A stretch of 64,000 bases of DNA from Thermodesulfobacteriota bacterium (GTDB lineage: Bacteria > Desulfobacterota_D > UBA1144 > Nemesobacterales > Nemesobacteraceae). A program made the translations under genes and the position numbers. The notes under the pieces were generated by a model, which saw nothing but the letters and a program-made list of their open reading frames with translations, did no database searches and was not told the DNA's origin. Within the stretch, counting starts at the first letter, position 1, and the number at the start of each line of letters is the position of its first letter. Where the stretch lies: contig OZ252213.1 of assembly GCA_965249045.1 (NCBI GenBank), positions 1,399,904 to 1,463,903 of the forward strand, written 5' to 3'. This document shows positions 17,525 to 47,229 of the stretch, piece by piece.

Positions 17525-18427
17525 CTACATCGTTGAGAGTTTCAGAAACTGTCCGTATCTTTCCTCTATTTCCTGCTTTTGAAGCGAACTGAGACGTCTT
17601 ACGCTGAAATCCTCAACGGTAAAAGAAGCCAGAACACTTCCGTAGGCAACCCCTTTTTTAAAGCTGGCAAAATCAAGGTCTTTATCCTGAGACGCCACAT
17701 AACCCATGAATCCTCCGGCAAAAGTGTCTCCTGCTCCCGTTGGGTCAAGCACCTGTTCAAGCATGTAGCTTGGGGCGAAAAACAAAGCTTCCCGGGAGAA
17801 AAGCAAAGCTCCGTACTCCCCTCTTTTCACAATCAGAAATTCCGGGCCCATGTCCATTATCTTTTTCGCCGCCCTGGCCACAAGTGGTTCTTCCGAGAGT
17901 TGTCTTGCCTCAGAATCGTTTATTATGAGGATGTTTACTCTGCCAAGAAGTTTTTTAAGTTCCTGTAGTTTGTTCTCTATCCAGAAATTCATGGTGTCAC
18001 AGGCCACAACGCGGGGCGAACTCACCTGCTCAAGGACTTTCATCTGTATTTCCGGATCGGTGTTGGCCAGGAAAAGATAGTCGGCCTCTCTTGATTTTTC
18101 GGGAACCACAGGATCAAACGACCCCAGAACGCCAAGGGTGACGGAAACGGTTTCGGGATCTTTCATGTCATAGTCGTATCTGCCTTCCCATCTGAAGGTT
18201 TCTCCGGCACTGATCGCTATCCCTTCCGTATCAACGCCCTTTGAGCGAAGCATCTCAGAATAGTCCGGAGGAAAATCGTCTCCTACAGCCGAAACCATAT
18301 GAACATCTGTAAAATTACGGGCCGCCAGAGAAAAATAACAAGCGGATCCCCCAAGCACATCCTCTTCTCTTCCAAAAGGCGTTTCTATGGTATCAATCCC
18401 TACTGAACCTACTACAACTATGCTCAT
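17525..18427 (-). CDS. PfkB-family carbohydrate/nucleoside kinase (ribokinase-like)
   Basis: N-terminal GSVGIDT and a C-terminal DPTGAGDTFAGGF anion-hole motif. Confidence 0.8.
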   Translation of the reverse strand: MSIVVVGSVGIDTIETPFGREEDVLGGSACYFSLAARNFTDVHMVSAVGDDFPPDYSEMLRSKGVDTEGIAISAGETFRWEGRYDYDMKDPETVSVTLGVLGSFDPVVPEKSREADYLFLANTDPEIQMKVLEQVSSPRVVACDTMNFWIENKLQELKKLLGRVNILIINDSEARQLSEEPLVARAAKKIMDMGPEFLIVKRGEYGALLFSREALFFAPSYMLEQVLDPTGAGDTFAGGFMGYVASQDKDLDFASFKKGVAYGSVLASFTVEDFSVRRLSSLQKQEIEERYGQFLKLSTM

Positions 18428-18435
18428 CCGAACCT

Positions 18436-19290
18436 CTACATGTATTTTTTTACAACAAGCTCAAGCCTGTCCTTAGTCTCTTCGGTTACGTGCTCCGGGG
18501 ACGTTATTATGGAGTAACCGAGGGCACCGGCACAGGGGCATTCTCTTTTTTCTGGGATACTATCAACTACAGCAGCCAATATTTTTTTCGCCGCATCGAC
18601 GTTTTTGTTCATGATTTCGATTATATCTGAGACTTTGACATCGTCGTGATCTTCTTTCCAGCAGTCATAATCGGTGCAAAGAGCTATCACGGAATAACAA
18701 ATCTCGGCTTCCCTCGCGAGTTTTGCTTCCGGCATCGCAGTCATTCCTATTACTCCTGCTCCCCATCTCCTGTAAATATGGCTCTCCGCTCTGGTAGAGA
18801 ACTGAGGACCTTCTATACAGATATAGGTTCCTCCAGAGTGAACCGTCCCACCACAGCCAAGCGATGCCTCTCTAAGACAATCCGAGAGCACAGAACACAC
18901 GGGATCGGCCATTGAAACGTGCGCCACCAGACCACCCTCAAAAAAGGTAGAAGGCCGCCCTTTTGTGTTATCAATGAACTGATCGGGTATTACTATGTGT
19001 CCGGGTTCTATTTCCTCTTTCAAGCTGCCCACGGCACTTACGGATATAACCCACTCGACTCCCATAGCTTTCATCGCGTATATGTTAGCCCGGAAATTTA
19101 TCTCCGATGGGGATATTGTATGCCCTGTCCCGTGTCTTGGAAGAAAAACCATGCGCGTGCCGCCAAGAGTTCCCGTGACGAGACTTGAAGAAGGGCTACC
19201 CCATGGAGTGTCCATAGAAACGCTTTTAACGTCCGAAAGTCCCTCCACCTCATAGAGACCGCTTCCGCCTATTACTCCTATGGTCCTCAA
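18436..19290 (-). CDS. mtnP: S-methyl-5'-thioadenosine phosphorylase / purine nucleoside phosphorylase family
   Basis: IGVIGGSGLYE...HGTGHTISPSEINFRANIYAMK, typical of the MTAP/PNP-I family. Confidence 0.85.
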   Translation of the reverse strand: MRTIGVIGGSGLYEVEGLSDVKSVSMDTPWGSPSSSLVTGTLGGTRMVFLPRHGTGHTISPSEINFRANIYAMKAMGVEWVISVSAVGSLKEEIEPGHIVIPDQFIDNTKGRPSTFFEGGLVAHVSMADPVCSVLSDCLREASLGCGGTVHSGGTYICIEGPQFSTRAESHIYRRWGAGVIGMTAMPEAKLAREAEICYSVIALCTDYDCWKEDHDDVKVSDIIEIMNKNVDAAKKILAAVVDSIPEKRECPCAGALGYSIITSPEHVTEETKDRLELVVKKYM

Positions 19291-22182: not shown

Positions 22183-23556
22183 GAGAAAAATTCCCAATAG
22201 CAGTTTGAAAAACCATAGTGAAAACAGCTGGTTAAAATTTTTGGTTCAAGCAGTTTCTATCTAACTTCCGACTTTCCCGTCCCCACAACCTTTGGGAGCA
22301 AGGTGCTTCCCTTTTGGAATTTCCTTCAGAAGTGTGTGTGTTGGAGTGCAAGATTAGGTTCTCTCGCCATTGTCACGTAAGTTCTCTTCTCGGGAGAAAA
22401 GTAAAAAGAAAAGATGTATATCTTTCTTTGTTCTATTCTATCGCGGCTTCTTCACCCATTATTGCGGTTATGTAGTACTTGTAAGTAAAGATGACACACC
22501 CAACAACCAAGAACATCGCGGTTGCCAAGTACATGCTGAAGAAGCCGTAATCGCGCACTATCAGTCCAAGAATAATAGCGGAAGAGTTTATTCCTGTTCC
22601 GTAGGCCATATTAAATATGCCCACTGCGGTTCCCCTCTCGCCGGCATGCGCTCTGTCAATAACCATTGTATTTATCGTGGGATAAGCAAATCCGTAGCCT
22701 ATACTAAATACCAGAGAGAACAGAATCAATTGTGAATAGATGCTCACGAAGAAAGCTATGGGCATCGAGACAACTATCATAAAGAGTGCTGGCAGAGCGA
22801 TCTTTCTTCTCTGTATAATATCCGTGAACCTTCCCCCAAAAACCCTGATTAATATTGCCACCACGGCATAGATAACAAAAAAAATTCCCATTTGAAGGCC
22901 CTGTTCTTTGAGATGAATGTGGAAGAAATGGACTAAAGACCCGAGCCCCACGGCGATCATCAGGTTCATCAGGAAAAGTACGCTGAACCTGTCGGAAAAC
23001 AAAACATTAAGGAATCCTTGGAAAAGCTGGCCCCTGAGTACGCCGCGGGTTGTTTTCGCTGAGAAGAAGCAAAGTATAAACGCAAACAGCTGGAAGCTAG
23101 AAGCGTAGAGAAAAAACGTATGGTAACCGAATTTTTCAATAAGAATTTCTCCGAAGAAGGGCCCGATGGAGAAACAGGCTATCATCGTAACACCGAAGGT
23201 GGTAAGACAAGAATGCCTTATGTTCCTAGGAATGGTATACGAAACGGCTGTAGCCGCGGAAGTAAAGAAAAGGCCGAATGCAACGCCCTGCAAAAGCCTC
23301 AAAGCGTACATCATTGCGTTAATATCCGATACAAACAGGTAAAGAATGGAGAACAAAAACATTAGGGCTGAACCCAAGAGCATGAAAATCCTCTGCCCGT
23401 AGCGGTCTATAAGAAAACCGGAAACCAGAGCGGTACTTACTGACGCTATACCGAAAGTCCCCATCACGTAACCAATAGAGGCCGTGTCACCTCCTAGGTC
23501 TTTTATGAAAAGTGGCAGCAGGAAGAAGGAGGTGAAACCACATTGGAAGAAAAAAT

Positions 23557-25094
23557 GAGTTATAACTAAATCTGGTGTTCAGAGTGATTTGAAAAAAAGC
23601 GGCGTATCCGGTTGATTTGTTGTTTGAGTTCAAAAAAACAACCAATAGGAGGATACGCCACTATGGGCAAGAAGGATAAAGTTTTTGACCTCAAAGGTCA
23701 AAAAGAGACAATCGATTCATTGAACGGACTGTTCAGCAAATTTGTCCACTCAGAAAGACAGAGAGCGGTTGCCAAAGAATTGAAGCTTGACGGACACATG
23801 GGAAACGGGCTTCAAGGCCCCGGGGCGGTTGCTGACCCCCTCAGCGAGATGTTGAGAGAGGGCGCCCGGTTTCTTCTCGGCACAGCCGTGCGGTGCGAGC
23901 TCGAAGAGTTCCTCAAGCAATACGAGGATCGTCTTCTGGACAATGGGAGAGTCGCGGTTGTGCGCAACGGATACCTGCCCGAGCGGGAGATACAGACCGG
24001 CATTGGTCCCGTGAAGGTACGAGTTCCCAAGGTGAGGTCCAAGGACGGGGAACCCGTCACTTTCCACTCGGTATTGGTGCCTCCCTATGTGCGCAAGGCC
24101 GCGACGCTTGAGGCGGCTTTGCCTTGGCTGTATCTGAAGGGAGTATCCACCGGGGAGATGGGGCCTGCGCTAGAGGCGCTGATCGGGCCTGAGGCCAGGG
24201 GGCTTTCGCAAAGCACGGTGTCGCGGCTCAAAAAACAGTGGGCCGAGCAATACGGTACCTGGAGGACCGGGGATTTGAGCGAGGGTCGCTGGGTGTATAT
24301 ATGGGTAGACGGCATATACAGCAACATACGAGGAGATAACCCTCGGTTGTGCGTGCTGGTGGTCATAGGGGTAAACGAACGTGGGGAGAAGCACTTCCTG
24401 GCTATCGAAGACGGTGTGCGAGAATCAAAGCAGAGCTGGCGTGAGGTATTGGTGAATCTCAAAGGGCGTGGGATGAAGGAAGCCCCGAAGCTTGCTGTTG
24501 GAGATGGAGCGCTTGGGTTTTGGCCCGCTCTTGAAGAGGTTTACGGAGAAACCCGTCAGCAGCGCTGCTGGGTGCACAAAACGATGAACGTACTCAACTA
24601 CCTGCCCAAGTCCTCCCAGCCCAAGGCCAAGAGGCAGCTGCATGATATCTGGCAGGCGGAGACAAAGGAAGACGCGGAGAGGGCCTTTGATCTGTTCTTG
24701 AAGACATATGAAGACAAGTACCCGAGAGCGGCACAGTGCCTTGTGAAGGACAGGGAGGAGTTGCTGGCGTTTTACGACTTTCCCGCCAACCACTGGCGGA
24801 GCATTCGGACAACGAACCCGATTGAGTCGGCCTTCGGCACAATACGGCATCGGACCAGACGCTGCAAAGGCTGTCTGAGTTCCGAGGGCATGTTGCACAT
24901 GATATTCAAGCTGGGGATGTGCGCGGAGAAGAACTGGCGCAAAATTAACGGGTTTGATTTCCTGGCGAAAGTGATAACGGGAGTGAAGTTCAGAGATGGG
25001 ATCGAAGAGACAACAGAGAAAACAGCGGAGGTGACGACAGACGATCAGGTCGCCGCTTGATCATGTCCTTGAACACCAGATTTGCATATATCTC
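23557..25094 (+). mobile_element. IS256-family insertion sequence, copy 1 (1538 bp), flanked by an 8-bp target-site duplication GAAAAAAT
   Basis: It matches copy 2 at 44666..46203 across the transposase ORF and at both ends. The terminal inverted repeats are imperfect and about 32 bp long (gagttataactaaatctggtgttca... versus the reverse complement gagatatatgcaaatctggtgttca...). The duplication GAAAAAAT lies at 23549-23556 and 25095-25102. Confidence 0.9.
23612..25060 (+). CDS. IS256-family (Mutator-type) transposase
   Basis: 482 aa with the C-terminal family signature HWRSIRTTNPIESAFGTIRHRTR. The protein is identical to the copy at 44700..46148. Confidence 0.9.
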   Translation: MICCLSSKKQPIGGYATMGKKDKVFDLKGQKETIDSLNGLFSKFVHSERQRAVAKELKLDGHMGNGLQGPGAVADPLSEMLREGARFLLGTAVRCELEEFLKQYEDRLLDNGRVAVVRNGYLPEREIQTGIGPVKVRVPKVRSKDGEPVTFHSVLVPPYVRKAATLEAALPWLYLKGVSTGEMGPALEALIGPEARGLSQSTVSRLKKQWAEQYGTWRTGDLSEGRWVYIWVDGIYSNIRGDNPRLCVLVVIGVNERGEKHFLAIEDGVRESKQSWREVLVNLKGRGMKEAPKLAVGDGALGFWPALEEVYGETRQQRCWVHKTMNVLNYLPKSSQPKAKRQLHDIWQAETKEDAERAFDLFLKTYEDKYPRAAQCLVKDREELLAFYDFPANHWRSIRTTNPIESAFGTIRHRTRRCKGCLSSEGMLHMIFKLGMCAEKNWRKINGFDFLAKVITGVKFRDGIEETTEKTAEVTTDDQVAA

Positions 25095-25615
25095 GAAAAA
25101 ATTTCCCAGAGTGATTAGAGAAAAATCTTTATATTCTCTTATGAACTCCATATTGAGGCCTATTCTAACGAAAGAAAATTCAAGCCTGAATACTACACGA
25201 TTTTATATTTTGTGTTGATCTTTACAGTCAAATTTTCTCATATAAAAACGCTCCACAATATAACACAGACTTGCCCGAACCATGAGGTTGGCCATTAGGA
25301 TAAATATTTTTCGTCATCCCACTCATCTTGACTAAGTTTCTATTGCAGGGGAATGACATGAGCACGGCTTGAAGGAATGAAAGCGATTTTTATGATCTCT
25401 CAATATACTCTAGAGAAAGTTGCTATGAGTGGTAAACGCAAGGAAATGTTACGGAAAAATCTGTGGCCTGAACAGTACTTTCAGTGATCATGGGCTACGC
25501 ATACCCGTAAACCTTTGATCAGGGGGAAGTAATACCATTAACAAATGGCAACGCTACGTCCATATCCACGCTCGGCCACTAGCCTGCTCCGCTGAGTTGA
25601 AATCGGCTGCTAACC

Positions 25616-34366: not shown

Positions 34367-37300
34367 TCAGTATCCAAGATTCGGGCGGAGCCATTTTTCC
34401 GCTTCCTCAAGACTGATTTCCTTTCTTTTCGCATAATCCAGAACCTGGTCCTTCAGTATTTTCCCAAGAGAAAAATACCTTGATTCGGGATGGGCCATGT
34501 AAAAACCCGAAACCGAACTCGACGGGGTCATGGCGAAGCTTTCGGTAAGTGATACTCCCGTGTGTTTTTCCGCCTTGAGAAGGTCCCAGAGAATCTTCTT
34601 TTCCGTGTGATCAGGACAGGACGGGTACCCTGGAGCAGGCCTTATTCCCCTGTATTTTTCACTTATCAGGTCTTCGGAACTGAGCTTTTCCTCTTTCCCG
34701 TATCCCCAGAAGTCTCTTACTTTTTTATGGATCATTTCGGCAAGAGCCTCAGCTATTCTGTCTCCAAGCACGCTTGTCATAATCGAATTGTAATCATCCC
34801 CCTTTTCCTTGAAGTCCGCGGAAAATTTCTCAACCCCATCGCCTGCAGTTACCACAAAGCCCCCCATGTAATCTTCTCTGCCCGAGGCTTTTGGCGCTAT
34901 AAAATCGGAAAGACAATAAAAGTGCCCTTGTTTAGACCGTATTTCCTGCTGTCTTAGGAAATGGAGTATGGCCAGAACCCGTTTTTCCTCTCCATGGATT
35001 TCAACGTCGTCTCCGACACTGTTTGCGCGGAAGATTCCGACAACCGCACGGGGAGTGAAAACTTTCTCCAGGATTATCCGCTTAAGGAGCGCTTGGCCGT
35101 CCCGGTAAAGTTTTTTTGCCTGGCTTCCTCTTTTGGGGTGCTCAAGTATTTTCGGGAAAACCCCTTTGAGCTCCCACGCCCAGAAAAAAGGAGACCAGTC
35201 TATGTAACCGGCGACTTCTTCAAGTGAGATGGTGTCGAAGACAAAAACTCCAAGCCGCCCCGGGCGCTGTATTGCTATATTCTCCCATTCAGTCGGAAAT
35301 GCTTTTTCCCTTGCCTTTTCTATAGAAACATATTCCGCCTGGCCACGGGCTTTTTCAAAACGCTGCCTTTGCTCTGAGTTGCTTTTTTTAAGTTCCTCCA
35401 CGTAGGACCGGGTCTTTTCCGGATTCATTATGTCGTTACACACGCCTATAACAATGGAGGCATCGGGTATGTGGTCAACTATGCCGCTGTATCCAGGAGC
35501 TATTTTTATCGCCGTATGAGCCCTGCTTGTAGTAGCCCCGCCTATAAGAAGAGGGATATTAAGCCCCTCCCGTTCCATTTCTCTCGCGTTATACACCATC
35601 TCGTCAAGAGAAGGTGTAATCAGTCCGCTTAATCCTATGAAATCCGCTTGATGCTCTCTTGCAACGTTGAGTATTTTCTCGCAAGGAACCATTACCCCAA
35701 GGTCTATTACCTCATAGTTATTGCAACCGAGAACCACAGACACTATGTTCTTCCCTATATCGTGGACATCTCCCTTCACGGTGGCTATAACAAACTTCCC
35801 TTTGACTCCCCCGCTCCCCTTTTTTTCCTTTTCCATAAACGGCTGAAGGTATGCGACGGCCCTTTTCATCACTCTCGCGCTTTTCACCACTTGAGGAAGA
35901 AACATTTTGCCGTCACCAAACAGATTCCCCACTACTTTCATCCCATCCATGAGAGGACCCTCGATAACGTAAATAGGCGCTCCGTATTTGACCCTGGCCT
36001 CTTCCGCGTCATCCTCAATGAAATCCGCTATGCCGTTTACAAGGGAGTGCTCAAGACGTTTTTCAACCCCAAGTTCTCTCCATTGCCTAGTTTCTTTTTC
36101 CGCGCCCGCGGACTTCATACCTTCAAAACGTTTTGCGTACTCAACAAGACGCTCCGTGGCATCGGGATGACGGTTAAGAAGCACGTCTTCTACTCTTTCA
36201 AGAAGTTCAGGGTCAATATCGTCGTAAACAGTGAGCATCCCCGCGTTTACTATCCCCATGTCAAACCCGGCTTTTATCGCGTGGTAAAGAAATGCGCTGT
36301 GCATAGCTTCACGCACCATGTTGTTTCCCCTGAAGGAGAAGGATATGTTGCTTACTCCACCGCTTGTAAGCGCTTTGGGACAGGATTTTTTTATTTCCCT
36401 TACAGCTTCGATGAAATCCACGGCATACGAATTGTGTTCCTCTATCCCTGTTCCGACCGTAAGAACGTTGGGATCAAAAATTATATCGCAGGGGTCCATG
36501 CCCACTTTTTCGGTTAATATGCGGTAAGCCCTTTTGCAGACTGCTACCTTATCCTCTTTTGAGGCCGCCTGGCCTTTTTCGTCAAAAGCCATTACCACGA
36601 CCGAGGCACCGTAACGCATTGCCGCCTTTGCCTGCTGGCAGAACACCTCCTCGCCTTCCTTAAGACTTATGGAATTTACGATGCACTTGCCCTGAATACA
36701 TTTAAGCCCCCGCTCAATAACAGACCATTTCGAGCTGTCTATCATCACGGGTACCTTGACCACCTCGGGTTCCGACGCGATAAAATTAAGGAAACGCTCC
36801 ATACAGGCTTCAGAGTCAAGAAGCCCTTCATCGAAGTTGACATCTATTATGTTCGCCCCGTTTTCTACCTGCTGAAGAGCTATAGAAACGGCTCCTTCAA
36901 AATCTCCTTCCTTTACAAGCCTTGCGAACTTAGGAGAACCAGTAACATTGGTCCTCTCGCCAACCATTATGAAAGGCCCTTCGGCATCAGAGGTTATCCT
37001 AAGGGGCTCGAGGCCGCTTAGTCTGGTTACGCCTTTATAAACGGGGATCTTTCTTGGCGGAACATCTCCGAGTTTTTCCACAACCATTTCTATGTGTTCC
37101 GGAGTGGTGCCGCAGCATCCGCCGACTATATTTAGAAAACCGCTCTCCGCGAAATCCTGAAGAAGAGTAGAAGTAATCTCGGGAGTCTCGTCATATCCGG
37201 TTTCACTCAACGGATTGGGAAGCCCCGCATTTGGGTAGCAGCTTATGCAGCAGTCAGCTATTCGAGAGAGTTCTTCAATGTAAGGACGCATGTCTTCCGC

Positions 37301-38071
37301 CCCAAGCGCGCAGTTTATGCCGACGCTGAAGGGTTTTGCGTGGCGAACCGAGTTCCAGAAAGCCCCCACTGTCTGCCCTGAGAGGGTGCGCCCGGAACGA
37401 TCCGTTATGGTAACGGAAAGCATGACTGGAATCCTGTCCCCGCCGCGCGCATCGAAAAAGGTTTCAATGGCGTATATGGCCGCTTTGAGGTTCAGGGTGT
37501 CAAAAGTGGTCTCGGGCAGAAGTATATCAACCCCTCCCTCAACAAGAGCTTCTGCCTGCTCGCGGTAAGCCTCCACGAGCTGGTCAAAGGAAACCGCCCT
37601 GTAAGACGGATCGTTTACGTCAGGGGACATTGACGCAGTCTTGTTAGTCGGACCCAGTGCTCCGGCAACAAAACACGACCTATGGGGATTTTTCTCCATA
37701 AAGTCAGAAGCTGCCTTCTTTGCGAGTTTTGCCGACTCTACATTAAGGGTTCTCACCCAGCTTTCGAGGCCGTAATCGGCCTGAGCTATGGAGGTGGAAC
37801 TAAAGGTGTTGGTCTCAACTATATCGCAACCGGCTTCGAAGTATTTTCTGTGGATTTCATATATGACGTCGGGTCTTGTAAGGGAAAGGAGGTCGTTATT
37901 GCCCTTTAGATCCACCGGGTGATCAGAGAACAGATCTCCCCTGAAATCCTCTTCTTTGAGGTCGTGCCTTTGGATCATTGTGCCCATAGCGCCGTCGAGG
38001 AAAACTATTCTTTTATCCGCAAGAGCCTCGAGCCGCGCAGACACTTTTGTACACCTATCTTCCGTATTCAT
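34367..38071 (-). CDS. metH: Cobalamin-dependent methionine synthase
   Basis: 1234 aa with Hcy-binding, pterin-binding, B12-binding (DxHxxG region: [11 protein letters not shown]) and AdoMet reactivation domains. Confidence 0.95.
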
Positions 38072-38156: not shown

Positions 38157-38948
38157 CTACCATATGTTTCTGAGTTCTCTTAATTTTATGAAAACCGCCA
38201 TCGGATCATTCTCCAAAGACGGGTCTTTTTCCCTGAGCGCATCCAGGAGGGCCGGATCACCCGTTCTCATAAAGGGATTGTATGTTCTCTCCTCCCCTAG
38301 GGTTGACCGGGGAAACTTATCTTCGGGAATTTCCTCAAGCTTTTTCTTCGCATCTTCGTTCTCCGGAGCAAACTCAAGAGCGAACCTAAGATTAGTTTCC
38401 GCGTAGTCGTGACCGCAGAACATCCTTAGTCCGTCAGAAAGACTGGAAAGCTTAAAGGCAAAGGTCTCATAAAGATCCTCGACTTTCCCCCTGAACTTTA
38501 CGTTTCCGCATCCTGAGACAAATACCGTATCGCCCAGAAAGATGTTGTCACCGATTATAAAGGAGGTGTGTTCCGGGCAGTGCCCTGGAGTATGAATCAC
38601 CTGAAGTCGCTGCTTTCCGAACGATATCTCGTCTCCCTCCTCTATACCTTCGCTTCTTGGAGCAACGTGGTCGAGGGCCGTCGTATGAATAAGAATCTTC
38701 GAGGAGAGAAAAACCTTCGTTATGGGATTGTTTCCGTAAATGTGATCGGGATGCGCGTGGGTGTTCAGGACGTATTTAACCCTGTAGTCCCTCTCTCTTA
38801 TGATTTTCAGAAGAGTGACCGGGTCAAGCGGGTCTATTACCACGCATTGCCCCGTTTCCTCGCACGCCACCAGGTAATTGTAGTTGCTGTCGCTTTCGCT
38901 GACCTTGAAGCCGTGTATTGAGAATCCGTCCTCGCTAAGTACGTTCAT
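38157..38948 (-). CDS. MBL-fold metallo-hydrolase (hydroxyacylglutathione hydrolase-like)
   Basis: HxHxDH motif (NTHAHPDHIYGN) and downstream metal ligands. The start is uncertain; I chose MNVLSEDG. Confidence 0.75.
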   Translation of the reverse strand: MNVLSEDGFSIHGFKVSESDSNYNYLVACEETGQCVVIDPLDPVTLLKIIRERDYRVKYVLNTHAHPDHIYGNNPITKVFLSSKILIHTTALDHVAPRSEGIEEGDEISFGKQRLQVIHTPGHCPEHTSFIIGDNIFLGDTVFVSGCGNVKFRGKVEDLYETFAFKLSSLSDGLRMFCGHDYAETNLRFALEFAPENEDAKKKLEEIPEDKFPRSTLGEERTYNPFMRTGDPALLDALREKDPSLENDPMAVFIKLRELRNIW

Positions 38949-39132
38949 CCGAGCCTCCTTTTCGCGTGAAAGTGTACCTGAAAGCCTCATTGCGAATAAA
39001 AGACCGGAGACGCGCACTGCGGGTGAGCTGAGCAAAGAACTCCTTGACACCTACCGTGTTAGTCGCGGAATTTCTTTGACATCAAAAGCCGTTAGGGTAG
39101 TTTTTACTCCCGATTGACATTTTGGAGGCGTC

Positions 39133-40368
39133 ATGGGTTTCGTAGAATCTCTTAAATGCAAGGAATGCGGCGAGCTTTATCCCAAGGAACCGAAGCATGT
39201 ATGTGAGATGTGTTTCGGTCCTCTCGAAGCTGTATACAACTACGATGAGATAAAAAAGCATATCTCAAGGAAAGAAATAGCTTCCCGTCCGCAGAACATA
39301 TGGAGATACAAGGAACTTCTCCCCCTTGACTCCGAACCCACTCTCGGAACCCAGGTAGGGTACACTCCGCTTGTGCGAGCAAGAAATCTGGCCGAGGCGC
39401 TTGGGGTTTCGGAAATCTACGTGAAAAACGACGCGGTCTGCTACCCCACCCTTTCTTTTAAGGACAGGGTCGTATCCGTAGCCCTCTCAAAAGCAAAAGA
39501 GTTCGGATTCGAGACGATTGGCTGTGCATCCACGGGGAATTTAGCAAACTCCGTATCCTCGATTTCCGCTGCAGGAAATCTAAAAAGCTTCATATTAATT
39601 CCCCACGACCTTGAACAATCGAAAATACTCAACACCATAGTCTACGGAGCGAATCTTATAGGCGTAAGAGGCGCTTACGACGATGTAAACAGGCTCTGCA
39701 GCGAAATAGCCGACAAATACAACTGGGCTTTCGTGAACATAAACATGAGGCCCTATTATTCCGAAGGTTCCAAGTCATACGCGTTTGAAGTAATGGAACA
39801 ACTCGGATGGAAAGCCCCCAAGCACATAGTGGTTCCGATGGCAAGCGGTTCTCTCCTCACCAAGGTCTGGAAAGCCATAAAGGAATTTGAGTTGCTCGGA
39901 ATCGTGGAACCTCAGGGTTCAAAAATATACGGCGCCCAGGCAACGGGATGTTCGCCCATATCAACCGCATTTAAAAACGACTGGGAGACGTTCAAACCGG
40001 TAAAACCGGACACTATAGCGAAATCCCTCGCCATTGGTACTCCGGCCGACGGCTACTACGCAATGAATATAATAAGGGAAAGCGGTGGAGTAGCGGAAGA
40101 CGTAAGCGATGCGGAAATAGTGGACGCGATAGAGCTTCTTGCGAGGACCGAAGGCATTTACACCGAGACCGCGGGAGGAGTAACGCTCGGGGTAACGAAA
40201 AAGCTGATAGAAGAGGAAAAGATTCCCCGCGATGAGCCAATAGTGGTATCAATAACTGGAAACGGTCTTAAAACCCAGGATGCCGTTGAGGGAAGGCTTG
40301 GAAAGCCCCAGGTGATAGATCCTACTCTTGAGGACTTTGAAGAGCTTTACAGCAGTAAAAAACTGTAG
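39133..40368 (+). CDS. thrC: Threonine synthase-like PLP enzyme (fold type II) with an N-terminal zinc-ribbon
   Basis: SFKDRV lysine motif, a Gly-rich PLP loop and ThrC-like length (411 aa). The N-terminus carries CKECGELY...CEMCFGPL. I cannot distinguish a true ThrC from a ThrC-paralogous sulfhydrylase by eye. Confidence 0.8.
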   Translation: MGFVESLKCKECGELYPKEPKHVCEMCFGPLEAVYNYDEIKKHISRKEIASRPQNIWRYKELLPLDSEPTLGTQVGYTPLVRARNLAEALGVSEIYVKNDAVCYPTLSFKDRVVSVALSKAKEFGFETIGCASTGNLANSVSSISAAGNLKSFILIPHDLEQSKILNTIVYGANLIGVRGAYDDVNRLCSEIADKYNWAFVNINMRPYYSEGSKSYAFEVMEQLGWKAPKHIVVPMASGSLLTKVWKAIKEFELLGIVEPQGSKIYGAQATGCSPISTAFKNDWETFKPVKPDTIAKSLAIGTPADGYYAMNIIRESGGVAEDVSDAEIVDAIELLARTEGIYTETAGGVTLGVTKKLIEEEKIPRDEPIVVSITGNGLKTQDAVEGRLGKPQVIDPTLEDFEELYSSKKL

Positions 40369-40443
40369 TGTTACGTGTTATAGTCATTGGTATATGGTGG
40401 GTAGCAAAATTTTAGTAAACCAAGAGAAAAACGGGAGAAAAAC

Positions 40444-40716
40444 ATGGTATCGGTAAGAATTCCAACCCCTCTTAGAAAACTCTCAGGAGACAGAGACGAG
40501 CTTGAGATAGAAGCATCCACGGTATCCGTTCTCATAGAAGAACTCGAGAGCGAATGTCCTGGCATAAAGAACAGACTCTGTGATGAGAGCGGAAACGTAA
40601 GAAGATTCATAAATCTCTACGTGAACAATGAAGACATAAGGTTTCTTGACGGAGTGGACACGAAACTTAACGACGGAGATGTCGTATCAATTATTCCGGC
40701 AATAGCCGGAGGATGA
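40444..40716 (+). CDS. MoaD/ThiS-family sulfur-carrier protein (C-terminal ...AGG)
   Basis: 90 aa, with a beta-grasp-like sequence ending in GlyGly-stop. It lies 75 bp downstream of the thrC-like gene on the same strand. Confidence 0.7.
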
Positions 40717-40766: not shown

Positions 40767-41846
40767 TTAGTGAATTAATTCTTTTATTTTATTTAAGTAT
40801 TTCTCGATCAAAGGTTCTTTTCTTCCGTTGTAGCTTCCGGCAAATTCCATTAAAGCTTCCTTCTGTTTTCTGGTGAGTTTCTGCGGTATTACCACTTTTA
40901 CCACAACGTATTGATCGCCAAGACTCCCGGATTCCACGTCCACAAGCCCCTTTCCTCTAAGCTTGAAGGTTTGTTCCGGCTGCGTTCCGGCGGGGATTTT
41001 CATCTTGGTGGTACCCTTTAGAATCGGAACGTCTACCTCATCTCCAAGAGCCGCCTGAGTAAAGCTTATCGGAAACTCGCACACGATGTCGTTTCCGTCC
41101 CGTCTGAAAATGGGGTGTTCCCTTACCATTACCTGTATGTAGAGATCTCCCGGAGGACCTCCACGTGCTCCAGGTTCCCCTTCCCCCCTTATGACAAGCC
41201 TCATTCCACTGGAAATCCCGGCGGGTATGTTGACCTTTACCGCCTTCTCGGTGTATGAAAGGCCGGATCCCCGGCAACTTCTACAGGGATTCGTTATAAT
41301 TTTTCCGCTTCCCCCACACGAAGGGCAACCCTGGCTTATTGAAAACGGACCTTGGGAAAAAGCAACCGATCCTCTTCCTCCGCAACGATCACAAACTGAC
41401 TCTCCTCCAACCGCAGCTCCGGAACCAGAGCAATCATCACAGAGTTTTCTTTTCCTGATTTTTACTTCTCTCTGAGTCCCAAACGCAGCTTCATCAAAAT
41501 CCACTTCAAGGTTGTACTGCAGAGTCTCTCCTTGCCGGCCCCTGCTCCTGCCCATTCCTCCCGTGAAAACGTCATCGAAGAGATCGCCGAAAATATCGCT
41601 GAACCCCGAAAAACCGCCCATGCCGTCACCCGACATCTGGCCGAAACTGTCATAACGAGCCCTCTTATCCCTGTCGTTAAGCACTTGGTAGGCCTCGTTT
41701 ATTTCCTTGAACTTTTCTTCGGCATTCTTATCCTCGGGGTTGCGGTCCGGATGGTACTTGAAGGCAAGATCCTTGTAGGAACTTTTTATATCTTCGGGGG
41801 AAGCGTTTTTCTCAACAGCAAGTATTTCGTAGTAGTTTTTAGCCAT
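40767..41846 (-). CDS. dnaJ: Chaperone DnaJ (full-length, with zinc-finger repeats)
   Basis: J domain with HPD, a G/F region and four CxxCxGxG repeats (CDDCSGSG, CDRCGGRG, CPSCGGSG, CRSCRGSG). Confidence 0.95.
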   Translation of the reverse strand: MAKNYYEILAVEKNASPEDIKSSYKDLAFKYHPDRNPEDKNAEEKFKEINEAYQVLNDRDKRARYDSFGQMSGDGMGGFSGFSDIFGDLFDDVFTGGMGRSRGRQGETLQYNLEVDFDEAAFGTQREVKIRKRKLCDDCSGSGAAVGGESVCDRCGGRGSVAFSQGPFSISQGCPSCGGSGKIITNPCRSCRGSGLSYTEKAVKVNIPAGISSGMRLVIRGEGEPGARGGPPGDLYIQVMVREHPIFRRDGNDIVCEFPISFTQAALGDEVDVPILKGTTKMKIPAGTQPEQTFKLRGKGLVDVESGSLGDQYVVVKVVIPQKLTRKQKEALMEFAGSYNGRKEPLIEKYLNKIKELIH

Positions 41847-41873: not shown

Positions 41874-42476
41874 TCAGTCTTTTTCTTCAGAATCTTCCTC
41901 GGAGGTTTTTTCAGCACCTTGAGACACGGATACCATTGAGGGTCTTAGCAATCTTCCGTTAAGAAGATAGCCTTTCTGGACCTCTGAGATTATGGTGCCA
42001 CTTTCGTAAGTTTCCGAGTGCTCCTTGTAAACAGCTTCGTGGTAACTTGGGTCAAAACCAGTTCCCTCGCTTGAGTCTATCGGTGTAACGCCGAAGTTTC
42101 CTAGACCCGCCAGAAATTGCGCGTGAACAAGCTTTATTCCATCAAGAAAAGCTACGAAGTCTGTTTTTTCGCCAAGCAATTCTCCAGAAAGCTCAATAGC
42201 TCTTTCAATGTTGTCAAGAACGAAAAGCAGCTCCTTTAACTTCTGCGCGTTTCCGAAATCAAGTATTTCCTGCTTTTCCCTCGCAAGTCTTTTTTTGTAG
42301 TTATCAAAATCGGCCGAAAGCCTTAAATACTTCTCCCTCAAGGCTTCGAGTTCAGCGAAGGAGTCTTCCTCTATCTCTTTTTCTTGTCCGTCAGTACCGG
42401 GAGGTTCGGGCTCTTGCAGATCCTCAGCGCCGTTTTTCTCTTTCTCTTCAATTTCCGTTATCGTGTTCTCACTCAT
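41874..42476 (-). CDS. grpE: Nucleotide exchange factor GrpE
   Basis: 200 aa with an acidic N-terminus, a coiled coil and a GrpE C-terminal domain. Confidence 0.9.
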   Translation of the reverse strand: MSENTITEIEEKEKNGAEDLQEPEPPGTDGQEKEIEEDSFAELEALREKYLRLSADFDNYKKRLAREKQEILDFGNAQKLKELLFVLDNIERAIELSGELLGEKTDFVAFLDGIKLVHAQFLAGLGNFGVTPIDSSEGTGFDPSYHEAVYKEHSETYESGTIISEVQKGYLLNGRLLRPSMVSVSQGAEKTSEEDSEEKD

Positions 42477-43545: not shown

Positions 43546-44665
43546 CGGAATCAAAAGTAAATTCTGCACTTACCAAACTGTCATACAGAATCTCAAATTA
43601 ACTAGTTCCGCTAATTAGTGTCTGCCAGAGAAGCTCTTAACTTCCTGAAATAAAACGAAATAATTATGATTTTCCATGGTGAAGATTGTCCATATACGGT
43701 ACAATTATATCCGAACGATCAACACGCGGGCCTTTTACAAACAATCTTCGGGGGTTTTCCATGAGAAAGATAAAAGAACTGCAGCTTAGTCTCGGCGAAG
43801 TTCCGATCGAGAAGATACGCTTCAATCCCAAGTCAAGAGACGACATTCCCGCCGTACTCAGAGGACTTCAGTACATTTACGTAAACACCAAGACGCGCGA
43901 GGAACTGTTTTCGCTTCTTGAGAAGGAGTTTCTTGCGGAAGTGAATTTTGACGTCGGCCGTCCGGGGATGGACATATGGAGGGTGGTGGTTCTTGGGGTG
44001 TTGAAGCAGGGGCTTGGCTGTGATTACGACCGGCTTCACGAGCTTGCAAACAATCACAGCTCGCTACGCCGGATGCTGGGTCACAGCGACTATTCGGGAG
44101 AGTACGAATACGAGTTGCAGACTATAATGGACAACGTGTTTTTGCTTGAGCCGGAGATGCTCAACAAGATAGGGGAGATAGTGGTGAGGAGCGGTCACGA
44201 GGTCTCAAAAAAAAAGCCTGGAGAAGGGTTGCGGGGGCGGTGTGACTCGTTTCCCGTCAAAACCGACGTTGAATATCCCACGGACGTGAGATTGCTCTGG
44301 GACGCTGTGAGGAGTCTTGTCAAGGCGGTGGCTTCGGCTGCGCGGAGGAACGGGCTTTGGGGGTGGCGTCAGGAAGGCCATCTTCTTGGGAAGGGGAAGA
44401 AGCTGTTTACCGTGGTAAGCACTTCGCGCAGACGCAGGAAGGCTGGGGATGAGGGGGTAAAAGAGTATTTGAGGTTTAGCGAGAACATGGTGAAGCGGGC
44501 GGAGAAGACTCTTTTGGAGCTGGTGAGTGTGAAAGGGCCGCGGTGGTGCATTGACAATATTAACCAGTGGCTGCGTCACTCCCGCAGGCAGATAGACCAG
44601 GTGGAGAGGCGTTTGGTTAAAGGGGAAGCGATACCGCGGGGGGAGAAGGTGTTTTCGGTGTTTGA

Positions 44666-46203
44666 GAGATATATGCAAATCTGGTGTTCAAGGACATGAT
44701 CAAGCGGCGACCTGATCGTCTGTCGTCACCTCCGCTGTTTTCTCTGTTGTCTCTTCGATCCCATCTCTGAACTTCACTCCCGTTATCACTTTCGCCAGGA
44801 AATCAAACCCGTTAATTTTGCGCCAGTTCTTCTCCGCGCACATCCCCAGCTTGAATATCATGTGCAACATGCCCTCGGAACTCAGACAGCCTTTGCAGCG
44901 TCTGGTCCGATGCCGTATTGTGCCGAAGGCCGACTCAATCGGGTTCGTTGTCCGAATGCTCCGCCAGTGGTTGGCGGGAAAGTCGTAAAACGCCAGCAAC
45001 TCCTCCCTGTCCTTCACAAGGCACTGTGCCGCTCTCGGGTACTTGTCTTCATATGTCTTCAAGAACAGATCAAAGGCCCTCTCCGCGTCTTCCTTTGTCT
45101 CCGCCTGCCAGATATCATGCAGCTGCCTCTTGGCCTTGGGCTGGGAGGACTTGGGCAGGTAGTTGAGTACGTTCATCGTTTTGTGCACCCAGCAGCGCTG
45201 CTGACGGGTTTCTCCGTAAACCTCTTCAAGAGCGGGCCAAAACCCAAGCGCTCCATCTCCAACAGCAAGCTTCGGGGCTTCCTTCATCCCACGCCCTTTG
45301 AGATTCACCAATACCTCACGCCAGCTCTGCTTTGATTCTCGCACACCGTCTTCGATAGCCAGGAAGTGCTTCTCCCCACGTTCGTTTACCCCTATGACCA
45401 CCAGCACGCACAACCGAGGGTTATCTCCTCGTATGTTGCTGTATATGCCGTCTACCCATATATACACCCAGCGACCCTCGCTCAAATCCCCGGTCCTCCA
45501 GGTACCGTATTGCTCGGCCCACTGTTTTTTGAGCCGCGACACCGTGCTTTGCGAAAGCCCCCTGGCCTCAGGCCCGATCAGCGCCTCTAGCGCAGGCCCC
45601 ATCTCCCCGGTGGATACTCCCTTCAGATACAGCCAAGGCAAAGCCGCCTCAAGCGTCGCGGCCTTGCGCACATAGGGAGGCACCAATACCGAGTGGAAAG
45701 TGACGGGTTCCCCGTCCTTGGACCTCACCTTGGGAACTCGTACCTTCACGGGACCAATGCCGGTCTGTATCTCCCGCTCGGGCAGGTATCCGTTGCGCAC
45801 AACCGCGACTCTCCCATTGTCCAGAAGACGATCCTCGTATTGCTTGAGGAACTCTTCGAGCTCGCACCGCACGGCTGTGCCGAGAAGAAACCGGGCGCCC
45901 TCTCTCAACATCTCGCTGAGGGGGTCAGCAACCGCCCCGGGGCCTTGAAGCCCGTTTCCCATGTGTCCGTCAAGCTTCAATTCTTTGGCAACCGCTCTCT
46001 GTCTTTCTGAGTGGACAAATTTGCTGAACAGTCCGTTCAATGAATCGATTGTCTCTTTTTGACCTTTGAGGTCAAAAACTTTATCCTTCTTGCCCATAGT
46101 GGCGTATCCTCCTATTGGTTGTTTTTTTGAACTCAAACAACAAATCAACCGGATACGCCGCTTTTTTTCAAATCACTCTGAACACCAGATTTAGTTATAA
46201 CTC
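44666..46203 (-). mobile_element. IS256-family insertion sequence, copy 2 (1538 bp, inverted relative to copy 1), flanked by a 9-bp target-site duplication GGTGTTTGA
   Basis: It shares the same ends as copy 1. The duplication ggtgtttga lies at 44657-44665 and 46204-46212. Confidence 0.9.
44700..46148 (-). CDS. IS256-family (Mutator-type) transposase, identical to 23612..25060
   Basis: The 482-aa translation is identical to the copy 1 transposase. Confidence 0.9.
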   Translation of the reverse strand: MICCLSSKKQPIGGYATMGKKDKVFDLKGQKETIDSLNGLFSKFVHSERQRAVAKELKLDGHMGNGLQGPGAVADPLSEMLREGARFLLGTAVRCELEEFLKQYEDRLLDNGRVAVVRNGYLPEREIQTGIGPVKVRVPKVRSKDGEPVTFHSVLVPPYVRKAATLEAALPWLYLKGVSTGEMGPALEALIGPEARGLSQSTVSRLKKQWAEQYGTWRTGDLSEGRWVYIWVDGIYSNIRGDNPRLCVLVVIGVNERGEKHFLAIEDGVRESKQSWREVLVNLKGRGMKEAPKLAVGDGALGFWPALEEVYGETRQQRCWVHKTMNVLNYLPKSSQPKAKRQLHDIWQAETKEDAERAFDLFLKTYEDKYPRAAQCLVKDREELLAFYDFPANHWRSIRTTNPIESAFGTIRHRTRRCKGCLSSEGMLHMIFKLGMCAEKNWRKINGFDFLAKVITGVKFRDGIEETTEKTAEVTTDDQVAA

Positions 46204-47229
46204 GGTGTTTGAGGAACACACTCGGTGGATAGCGAAGGGCAAGGCGGGAGTGCCGGTTGAGCTTGGGGTTCCGGTGTGCGTGATAGAGGATCAGCACCAG
46301 TTCATACTGAACCACAGGGTGATGTGGAGAGAAGAGGACGTGGATGTGGCGGTACCTTTTATTGAAGAGACCATTGAGAAGTATCCCGGGCTTTTGGCTT
46401 GCAGTTTTGACCGAGGCGCCTGGAGTCCCGGCAACAAGAGCAGGCTTGATGGGATGCTTGAGAGCAGCGTCTTGGCGAAGAAGGGCGGGAAGAGCAAGGC
46501 TGACCGGGAGAGGGAAGAGAGCGAAGAGTTTGTTAAGGGGCGCAGGCGGCACCCCGCCGTGGAGTCGGCGATAAACGCCTTGAACCACAAGGGACTTGGC
46601 AGGGTAAGGGATCATGGGGTGCGGGGGTTCGCCCGGTGCGTTGCTTTGTCGGTGCCGTCGGCCAATGTTCACAGGCTCGGGAAGCTTGTGATGAAGAAAG
46701 AAGAGGAAAGAAGGCGACGAAAACTGAAGCCCAGGTTCCTTGCAGCTGCTTGACCTGCCTGGTTACAGCTTGATTATCCGTTAGAAAAGTAACGAAAACA
46801 GTCCGGTTGCGTTCGATTAAGGTCAGGCCTGCGCTGTTTTTGCAATAATCGCCGCTTTTTATTGCTCTGCGGGGGTTCAAAGCGGTTGCTGCTTGCGATG
46901 TCGCGGAATAATCGCCAAAATAATTGTGAAAAAAGGCTTTTTCTGACAGACACTAATTAAGCGGAATTGCCGGACAATGCTCTTTACAAGCCAAAAACTC
47001 TCACTGTTATTGTTGCTTAAATAGCTTTCTTCGATACCGCGAGAGCAAACCTACCTAGGACACAACTTTCATGGCAAACTCTCGCGAGTTCATATGGAAA
47101 GAATCTTCAGAGCTCAACAATGTTTTAACTGCTATAATTCTTGAAGTAATTCTTGCAGCTGAATGGTCCACATATTTAAAGTTGCAACAATCTTTGACGA
47201 TACGCCGATTATAAATATAATTACCCGAA

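Follow-up and report, generated by a model that had tools for sequence, protein, structure and literature searches.

Is a gene that databases label a threonine synthase to be read as one when a sulfur-carrier gene follows it and a methionine synthase gene lies on its other side? The question is raised by a 64,000-nucleotide stretch of contig OZ252213.1 from a Thermodesulfobacteriota bacterium (assembly GCA_965249045.1), referred to below, at its full length, as the window; the genome evidence for the source organism is this window. In it, a gene for a ThrC-family fold-type II pyridoxal phosphate (PLP) enzyme, here called metM-like, is followed after 75 bp on the same strand by a gene for a small beta-grasp carrier, here called metO-like, whose protein ends in ...IPAIAGG-stop. 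The pair is transcribed divergently from a metallo-beta-lactamase (MBL)-fold hydrolase gene and metH. An initial annotation, made from the letters of the window, had described the pair, its spacing, the Gly-Gly end and the divergent neighbours, all of which were found in place, and had proposed that a thiocarboxylated carrier supplies the sulfur with which a ThrC paralog makes homocysteine from O-phosphohomoserine.

In Streptomyces albulus, MetM and the thiocarboxylate of MetO convert O-phosphohomoserine to homocysteine (Hasebe et al., Appl Environ Microbiol 2024, as cited in GapMind 2026). According to GapMind 2026, the pathway consists of MetM, MetO, MoeZ and Mec, the route has been included in that tool, and MetM is said to be ‘often misannotated’ as threonine synthase; a SAM (S-adenosylmethionine) riboswitch upstream of metM is mentioned in PMC12172450. 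The actinomycete precedent mentioned in the initial annotation is correct, and the route, described there as proposed, is experimentally established. We read the window pair, with a probability of about 0.8, as Dadabacterial orthologs of MetM and MetO that make homocysteine. Membership of the MetM clade, as against bona fide ThrC, is favoured by residues that discriminate the enzyme from ThrC, by the family tree, by SAM-I riboswitches at 45 of 80 related loci and in an Actinoplanes genome, and by a carrier gene at 74 of the 80.

Departure of the metM-like enzyme from threonine synthases

The metM-like protein matched PF00291 (PALP; E 1.7e-65) and five solved ThrCs (E 1e-29 to 1e-55, best 4.5e-55), with 27% identity to the Arabidopsis one (1e5x) and 32.5-37% to the four from bacteria (Bacillus subtilis 6cgq, Aquifex 2zsj, Thermus thermophilus 1uim and Mycobacterium tuberculosis 2d1f). 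It scored 280.7 bits against TIGR00260 (thrC; cut-off 167.1), above the curated equivalog threshold, and 273.4 bits against the full-length model NF006050, under its cut-off of 303. The score against the cysteine synthase A model was 42 bits (cut-off 387), and the match to the cysteate synthase model TIGR03844 was weak (58.6 bits). Full-length proteins 100% identical to it are on record, and homologs at 89-93% identity bear the name Candidatus Dadabacteria.

Lys110 was invariant in alignment A1 and aligned with the lysine of the PTGSFKDRG motif of solved ThrCs; from what is established for ThrC we take it to be the Schiff-base lysine. The N-terminal zinc ribbon of the initial annotation is present as a four-Cys motif (C9, C24 and C27 invariant in A1, C12 conserved in at least 90%) and is missing from the solved short bacterial ThrCs. 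The ribbon was considered as a diagnostic of the clade and rejected, because a homolog with canonical ThrC motifs (P0367) carries it too.

The motifs around the active site departed from the canonical ones. PTGSFKDRG was replaced by PTLSFKDRV, CASTGNTSAS by CASTGNLANS (STGNTS to STGNLA) and NSVNPxR(L/I)EGQKT by NINMRPYYSEGSKS, the window protein reading NINMRPYYSEGSK where ThrC has NSVNPxR(L/I)EGQK; the loop that holds the PLP phosphate, GNAGN in ThrC, was ASGSL. When 1.84 billion cluster representatives were searched, these variants were found to be shared by many full-length relatives 40-57% identical.

Discriminating positions were sought in the catalytic domain by comparing 46 SAM-riboswitch-linked sequences with the five solved ThrCs, and were defined as at least 93% conserved in the former and invariant but different in all five of the latter. 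Eighteen positions were obtained, and the window protein carries the clade residue at all 18; in T. thermophilus numbering they include G58L, G64V, T88L, N157R, R160Y, G187A, G190S and N191L. In the T. thermophilus enzyme T88, N154, S155 and R160 presumably hold the phosphate of substrate or product, and the bound phosphate presumably directs the addition of water. The phosphate and specificity pocket has been remodelled in the window protein; with an arginine kept two residues away, it would fit a phosphorylated substrate and a different end to the reaction.

Neighbour-joining (distance-based) trees were computed from a trimmed MAFFT alignment of the catalytic domain. The window protein belongs to a clade with the enzymes of SAM-linked loci and the actinobacterial homologs, which left out the solved ThrCs in every one of 100 bootstraps, and every member of the smallest such clade carries the Leu-Ala/Gly and Arg...Tyr signature residues.

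Carrier linkage and SAM riboswitches at related loci

The metO-like protein matched PF02597 (ThiS; E 2e-17) and scored 52.1 bits against TIGR01687 (cut-off 49.5) and 20 bits against the moaD model TIGR01682 (cut-off 66). Its best solved relatives were CysO proteins, from Amycolatopsis (4n6e_B, 5e-20) and M. tuberculosis (3dwg_C, 2e-19), each 45.6% identical. No moaE, moaA, thiG or thiF was found in the window by a Pfam scan of open reading frames (ORFs) of at least 150 amino acids (aa), nor an E1 by tblastn. By its TIGR01682 score the carrier is not MoaD proper. Of the 120 homologs nearest to the carrier (P0121-P0240), 25 have an exact Gly-Gly end; the other 95 had a short C-terminal extension, mostly 1-4 residues long (among them N, C, R and K). 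This points to maturation by a protease in most relatives and not in the window genome. In the three closest genome loci (L005-L007) the carrier ends in GG plus one residue. The metO-like protein, ending exactly in Gly-Gly, would need no C-terminal trimming and would be ready for activation as translated.

To collect related loci, 185,579 species, each represented by one genome, were scanned for the motif N[IV][NT][LMI]R[PS][YFW]Y[ASV]E of the clade. At least 600 species genomes matched; all locus counts given here refer to the best 80 of these matches (L005-L084), whose enzymes share 56-85% identity with the window protein. These loci span about ten phyla (Thermodesulfobacteriota, Verrucomicrobiota, Planctomycetota, Nitrospirota, Elusimicrobiota, Acidobacteriota, Poribacteria, Omnitrophota, Rokubacteria, Methylacidiphilales and others). 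At 74 of the 80 loci a carrier homolog lay 3' of the enzyme gene and co-oriented with it, in most cases at a distance of 9-400 bp, and the pairing of enzyme and carrier is far beyond chance.

The clade is also linked to the methionine regulon. A SAM-I riboswitch (RF00162; 68-96 bits, gathering score 44.4) was found on the same strand 5' of the metM-like gene at 45 loci; in 44 it ended 68-385 nt before the start codon, and at the remaining one (L063) it lay 872 nt upstream with an E1 gene intervening. In the cultured actinomycete Actinoplanes derwentensis, the gene for a homolog sharing 49.5% identity with the window protein has a SAM-I riboswitch that ends 10 nt 5' of it. A 91-aa ORF near the Actinoplanes homolog was examined as a possible carrier and is not one. 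A homology search seeded with a Micromonosporaceae homolog returned Micromonosporaceae sequences and no Streptomyces.

Other genes recurred at the 80 loci: a stand-alone NIL-domain protein at 53, a CysK/M-type enzyme at 27, a ThiF-family E1 at 23, a JAMM protease at 12, TusA at nine and an Rrf2 regulator at five. Three layouts could be told apart. One, mostly in Verrucomicrobiota and Planctomycetota, runs riboswitch, metM, metO, NIL. Another comprises combined cysteine and homocysteine carrier clusters with CysK/M, E1 and JAMM genes, and the riboswitch is missing from 22 of the 27 loci with CysK/M. The third is the type of the window, found in Dadabacteria/Thermodesulfobacteriota, with metH and the MBL gene divergent from metM and metO, which are followed by dnaJ.

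The NIL protein (PF09383, about 92 aa) is encoded 3' of the carrier gene (for example L038:4584-4862) and is absent from the window and its close relatives. In about nine loci (L008, L010, L011, L013, L020, L047, L052, L059 and L064) the carrier ORF reads through Gly-Gly into a NIL domain; six of these loci also hold a JAMM gene. In L032 the carrier is fused to a ThiF E1. A literature search found no link between NIL domains and MoaD/ThiS carriers.

Proposed chemistry and alternative readings

The chemistry proposed here would follow the Streptomyces work and the mechanisms of ThrC and CysM/CysO. The carrier, already ending in Gly-Gly, would be adenylated without trimming by a ThiF/MoeZ-type E1 encoded elsewhere and converted to the C-terminal thiocarboxylate, as the ThiF genes in 23 related clusters suggest. 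O-phospho-L-homoserine would form the external aldimine at Lys110, and elimination of phosphate would give a vinylglycine-type intermediate, as expected from the chemistry of the family. The carrier thiocarboxylate would then attack C-gamma, where in ThrC water is added at C-beta; this step is modelled on the Streptomyces enzyme. Hydrolysis of the carrier-homocysteine adduct, carried out elsewhere by JAMM, would yield homocysteine and free carrier, and the divergently encoded MetH would methylate homocysteine to methionine.

Several findings weigh against the reading of the pair as MetM and MetO. Orthology to S. albulus MetM is indirect, running through actinobacterial SAM-linked homologs that are 48-50% identical, and the protein passes the NCBI thrC equivalog cut-off of TIGR00260. 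In Rfam scans no match reached the gathering threshold in the window, and none was obtained at E <= 10 in 38850-39250. No E1, JAMM, TusA, NIL or CysK/M gene was found in the 64 kb by tblastn with representatives from related loci, and none of them turned up in close relatives, where the 10-kb flanks were covered for E1, JAMM, TusA and NIL, so activation and release are unaccounted for locally; the initial annotation had already noted that the window has no E1 and no JAMM gene, and both the Pfam scan of ORFs of at least 150 aa and tblastn came back empty for them. Finally, a Microcystis homolog is reported to be a weak threonine synthase and threonine deaminase in vitro and not to raise methionine in vivo (PMC12172450). 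This Microcystis ‘ThrC’ is 51.6% identical to MetM and adjoins a metO-like gene (PMC12172450).

The activities reported for that clade member (PMC12172450), together with the TIGR00260 score and the database labels, are what would be expected if the metM-like protein were a genuine, possibly bifunctional threonine synthase or synthase/deaminase whose neighbouring carrier serves another pathway. We consider this unlikely: the solved ThrCs fall outside the clade in every bootstrap, and neither the riboswitches at 45 of the 80 loci nor the GG carrier at 74 would be expected of a threonine enzyme. The residues T88, S155 and R160, to which we ascribe phosphate contacts, are all replaced in the window protein. 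Cyanobacteria, moreover, keep a second, canonical ThrC (ThrC2) beside the clade member (PMC12172450). A related scheme, in which a streamlined Dadabacteria genome (about 1.9 Mb) holds a minimal, self-contained pathway, would have the sole ThrC-family enzyme split O-phosphohomoserine between water, giving threonine, and the carrier thiocarboxylate, giving homocysteine, with the MBL protein as a thioesterase in place of the JAMM protease (Mec). It appears very unlikely; the MBL gene is syntenic in the Dadabacteria/Thermodesulfobacteriota lineage alone.

That the closest solved relatives of the carrier are CysO proteins raises the question of whether the product is cysteine, made from O-phosphoserine by a ThrC-fold analogue of M. 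tuberculosis CysM/CysO. Cysteate synthase, a member of the ThrC family, acts on O-phosphoserine (the weak TIGR03844 match bears on this), and CysK/M genes share the cluster at 27 loci. The same co-occurrence can be turned round, since a CysK/M-type enzyme beside a ThrC-like one in a single cluster argues for two different products. Given also the regulation by SAM, the metH link in the Dadabacteria lineage and a characterised family member that makes homocysteine (as reported in GapMind 2026), a cysteine product is highly improbable. An incidental neighbourhood, with the carrier acting as MoaD, ThiS, a tRNA-thiolation protein or a ubiquitin-like modifier unrelated to the ThrC-like gene, is extremely improbable. 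Some sources do name homologs ‘molybdopterin synthase sulfur carrier subunit’, and the SAMP1 and archaeal MoaD models gave 52-54 bits; the TIGR01682 score, at 20 bits, stayed far from its cut-off of 66, the scans of the window found none of the moaE, moaA, thiG and thiF partners, and the same-strand pairing recurs across about ten phyla.

Local context and comparison with known systems

Features of the window are listed in the table.

Table. Positions of the metM-like/metO-like pair, its neighbours and other features in the window.
Feature	Position	Strand	Remark
metM-like gene	39133..40368	+	411 aa, ThrC-family fold-type II PLP enzyme; predicted to be a homocysteine synthase dependent on a carrier thiocarboxylate
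metO-like gene	40444..40716	+	CysO/MoaD-type beta-grasp sulfur carrier, 90 aa; GG codons 40708-40713, then stop
Four-Cys zinc-ribbon-like motif	39157..39213	+	C9-x2-C12 ... C24-x2-C27, N-terminus of metM-like protein
Lys110 codon	39460..39462	+	SFKDR motif; predicted PLP Schiff-base lysine
Promoter-like block	39076-39103	+	TTGACA-16 nt-TAGTTT, within a conserved stretch at 39074..39106, about 30 nt 5' of metM-like start; putative function
MBL-fold hydrolase gene	38157..38948	-	Glyoxalase-II-like; co-oriented with metH, divergent from metM-like gene
metH	34367..38071	-	Cobalamin-dependent methionine synthase (consumes homocysteine); NF007024 1985 bits
dnaJ	40767-41846		
grpE	41874-42476		
337-aa ORF	43686-44699		Probably truncated
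IS256/Mutator-family copy, left	23550-25099		1550 nt; 482-aa transposase (PF00872)
IS256/Mutator-family copy, right	44661-46210		1550 nt; inverted relative to left copy
PNP_UDP_1 phosphorylase and PfkB-family kinase genes	17525-19290	-	284 and 300 aa, adjoining

The ATG of the metM-like gene is preceded by a GGAGG Shine-Dalgarno sequence four bases 5'. Its leader is too short to accommodate a riboswitch, and the promoter-like block in it was the only long conserved intergenic stretch common with L005, whose enzyme is 85% identical; the block was not flagged by a generic promoter/terminator scan. Its conservation suggests plain promoter control instead of a riboswitch.

All five MetH Pfam domains were present in the metH product. 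The MBL gene, 85 bp from metH, has a longest ORF of 38157..39050 (-) and is called at 263 aa in a sister genome, so that its start is probably 38948; the MBL/metH unit and the pair diverge across about 184 bp. The MBL protein has Lactamase_B and HAGH_C domains, its TIGR03413 score (176.5 bits) lies under the GloB equivalog cut-off of 200.8, and its best PDB matches were glyoxalase II structures (1xm8, 9e-30; 1qh3). Conceivably the hydrolase, as a thioesterase, has homocysteine thiolactone or a thioester of carrier and homocysteine as its substrate, which is pure speculation. The order metH-MBL, divergent from metM-metO-dnaJ, is kept in L001-L007 and L086, all of the Dadabacteria/Thermodesulfobacteriota lineage. 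The initial annotation had taken the placement beside metH as an argument for methionine metabolism; the adjacency is real, but beyond this lineage it is not general (3 of the 80 loci), and the broader link is the SAM-I riboswitch. Within the Dadabacteria lineage, adjacency to metH takes the place of the riboswitch as the methionine link.

In relatives with an enzyme about 76% identical, dnaJ-dnaK-grpE-hrcA follows the pair (for example L001:11531-15246), and dnaK is missing between dnaJ and grpE in the window and the sister genome. The same relatives have a 163-aa ORF without a Pfam match between the MBL and metM-like genes, which is absent from the window. The rest of the window holds housekeeping genes (clpB, proS, ispG, pckA, tpiA, def, dnaJ-grpE-hrcA, lpd, purL/purF and valS), and the Pfam scans of ORFs of at least 150 aa detected no MetY in it. 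Two 100% identical, inverted IS256/Mutator-family copies flank 19.5 kb that include pckA, tpiA, def, metH, the metM-like/metO-like pair and dnaJ-grpE-hrcA, and could mediate inversion of this segment. An intact 481-aa ORF in the sister genome L086 at the site of the right copy indicates that the 337-aa ORF of the window was probably truncated by insertion; the GC content is 0.56 at 44-46 kb and about 0.46 elsewhere in the window. The PNP_UDP_1 phosphorylase, possibly an MTA (methylthioadenosine) or purine nucleoside phosphorylase, and the PfkB-family kinase are encoded about 20 kb from the pair and may belong to methionine or adenosine salvage.

The pathway is already published and included in an annotation tool, and the pair is a further example of it, in an uncultured marine member of Dadabacteria, to our knowledge a phylum without cultured representatives; for the window itself the result is confirmatory and not surprising. 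What the analysis adds is the evidence that the clade is very widespread and SAM-regulated, together with signature residues that tell it apart from ThrC. The motif matches in at least 600 species genomes suggest that the MetM/MetO route is spread far wider than ‘some Streptomyces’. Under a threonine synthase label, reconstructions of Dadabacteria, many Verrucomicrobiota, Planctomycetota, Nitrospirota and others would miss a homocysteine route, and mislabelling may yield a wrong prediction of methionine auxotrophy or a duplicated threonine step. A practical classifier would set STGNLA and N-x-N-x-R-P-Y-Y, plus association with SAM riboswitches, against the STGNTS and N-S-V-N-P-x-R of ThrC. Literature searches on methionine metabolism in Dadabacteria and on active-site residues of ThrC returned nothing usable.

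Four known systems can be set beside the pair. A thiocarboxylate-dependent methionine pathway is formed in Wolinella succinogenes by HcyS, HcyF, HcyD and MetY (Krishnamoorthy and Begley 2011, as cited in PMC5764234). There too, homocysteine receives its sulfur from a protein thiocarboxylate; the acceptor is O-acetylhomoserine and the enzyme the fold-type I MetY, whereas the enzyme of the window is of fold type II and the ThrC family, and the Pfam scans showed no MetY. Canonical ThrC (6cgq, 2zsj, 1uim and 2d1f) shares its fold, its PLP lysine motif and, presumably, its substrate O-phosphohomoserine with the metM-like protein, and differs from it by the modest identity, by the 18 residues (among them T88L, N157R and R160Y), by the ASGSL loop and by the separate clade.

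M. tuberculosis CysM/CysO, with Mec and MoeZ, comes close in the carrier family (45.6% identity to CysO 3dwg_C) and in the combination of a thiocarboxylate donor, a phosphorylated amino-acid acceptor and a fold-type II PLP enzyme. The window enzyme is ThrC-type and not CysK/M-type, and its acceptor and product would be O-phosphohomoserine and homocysteine, whereas CysM converts O-phosphoserine to cysteine. From S. albulus MetM/MetO the window differs in that the pair lies divergent from metH without a SAM riboswitch and without a MoeZ or Mec gene nearby, that the carrier ends exactly in Gly-Gly, and that identity to the actinobacterial clade members is about 48-50%. The two systems are alike in a ThrC-homologous PLP enzyme paired with a small GG-type carrier, in the link to methionine and in the threonine synthase annotation, and the clade of the window protein holds actinobacterial homologs under the control of SAM riboswitches.

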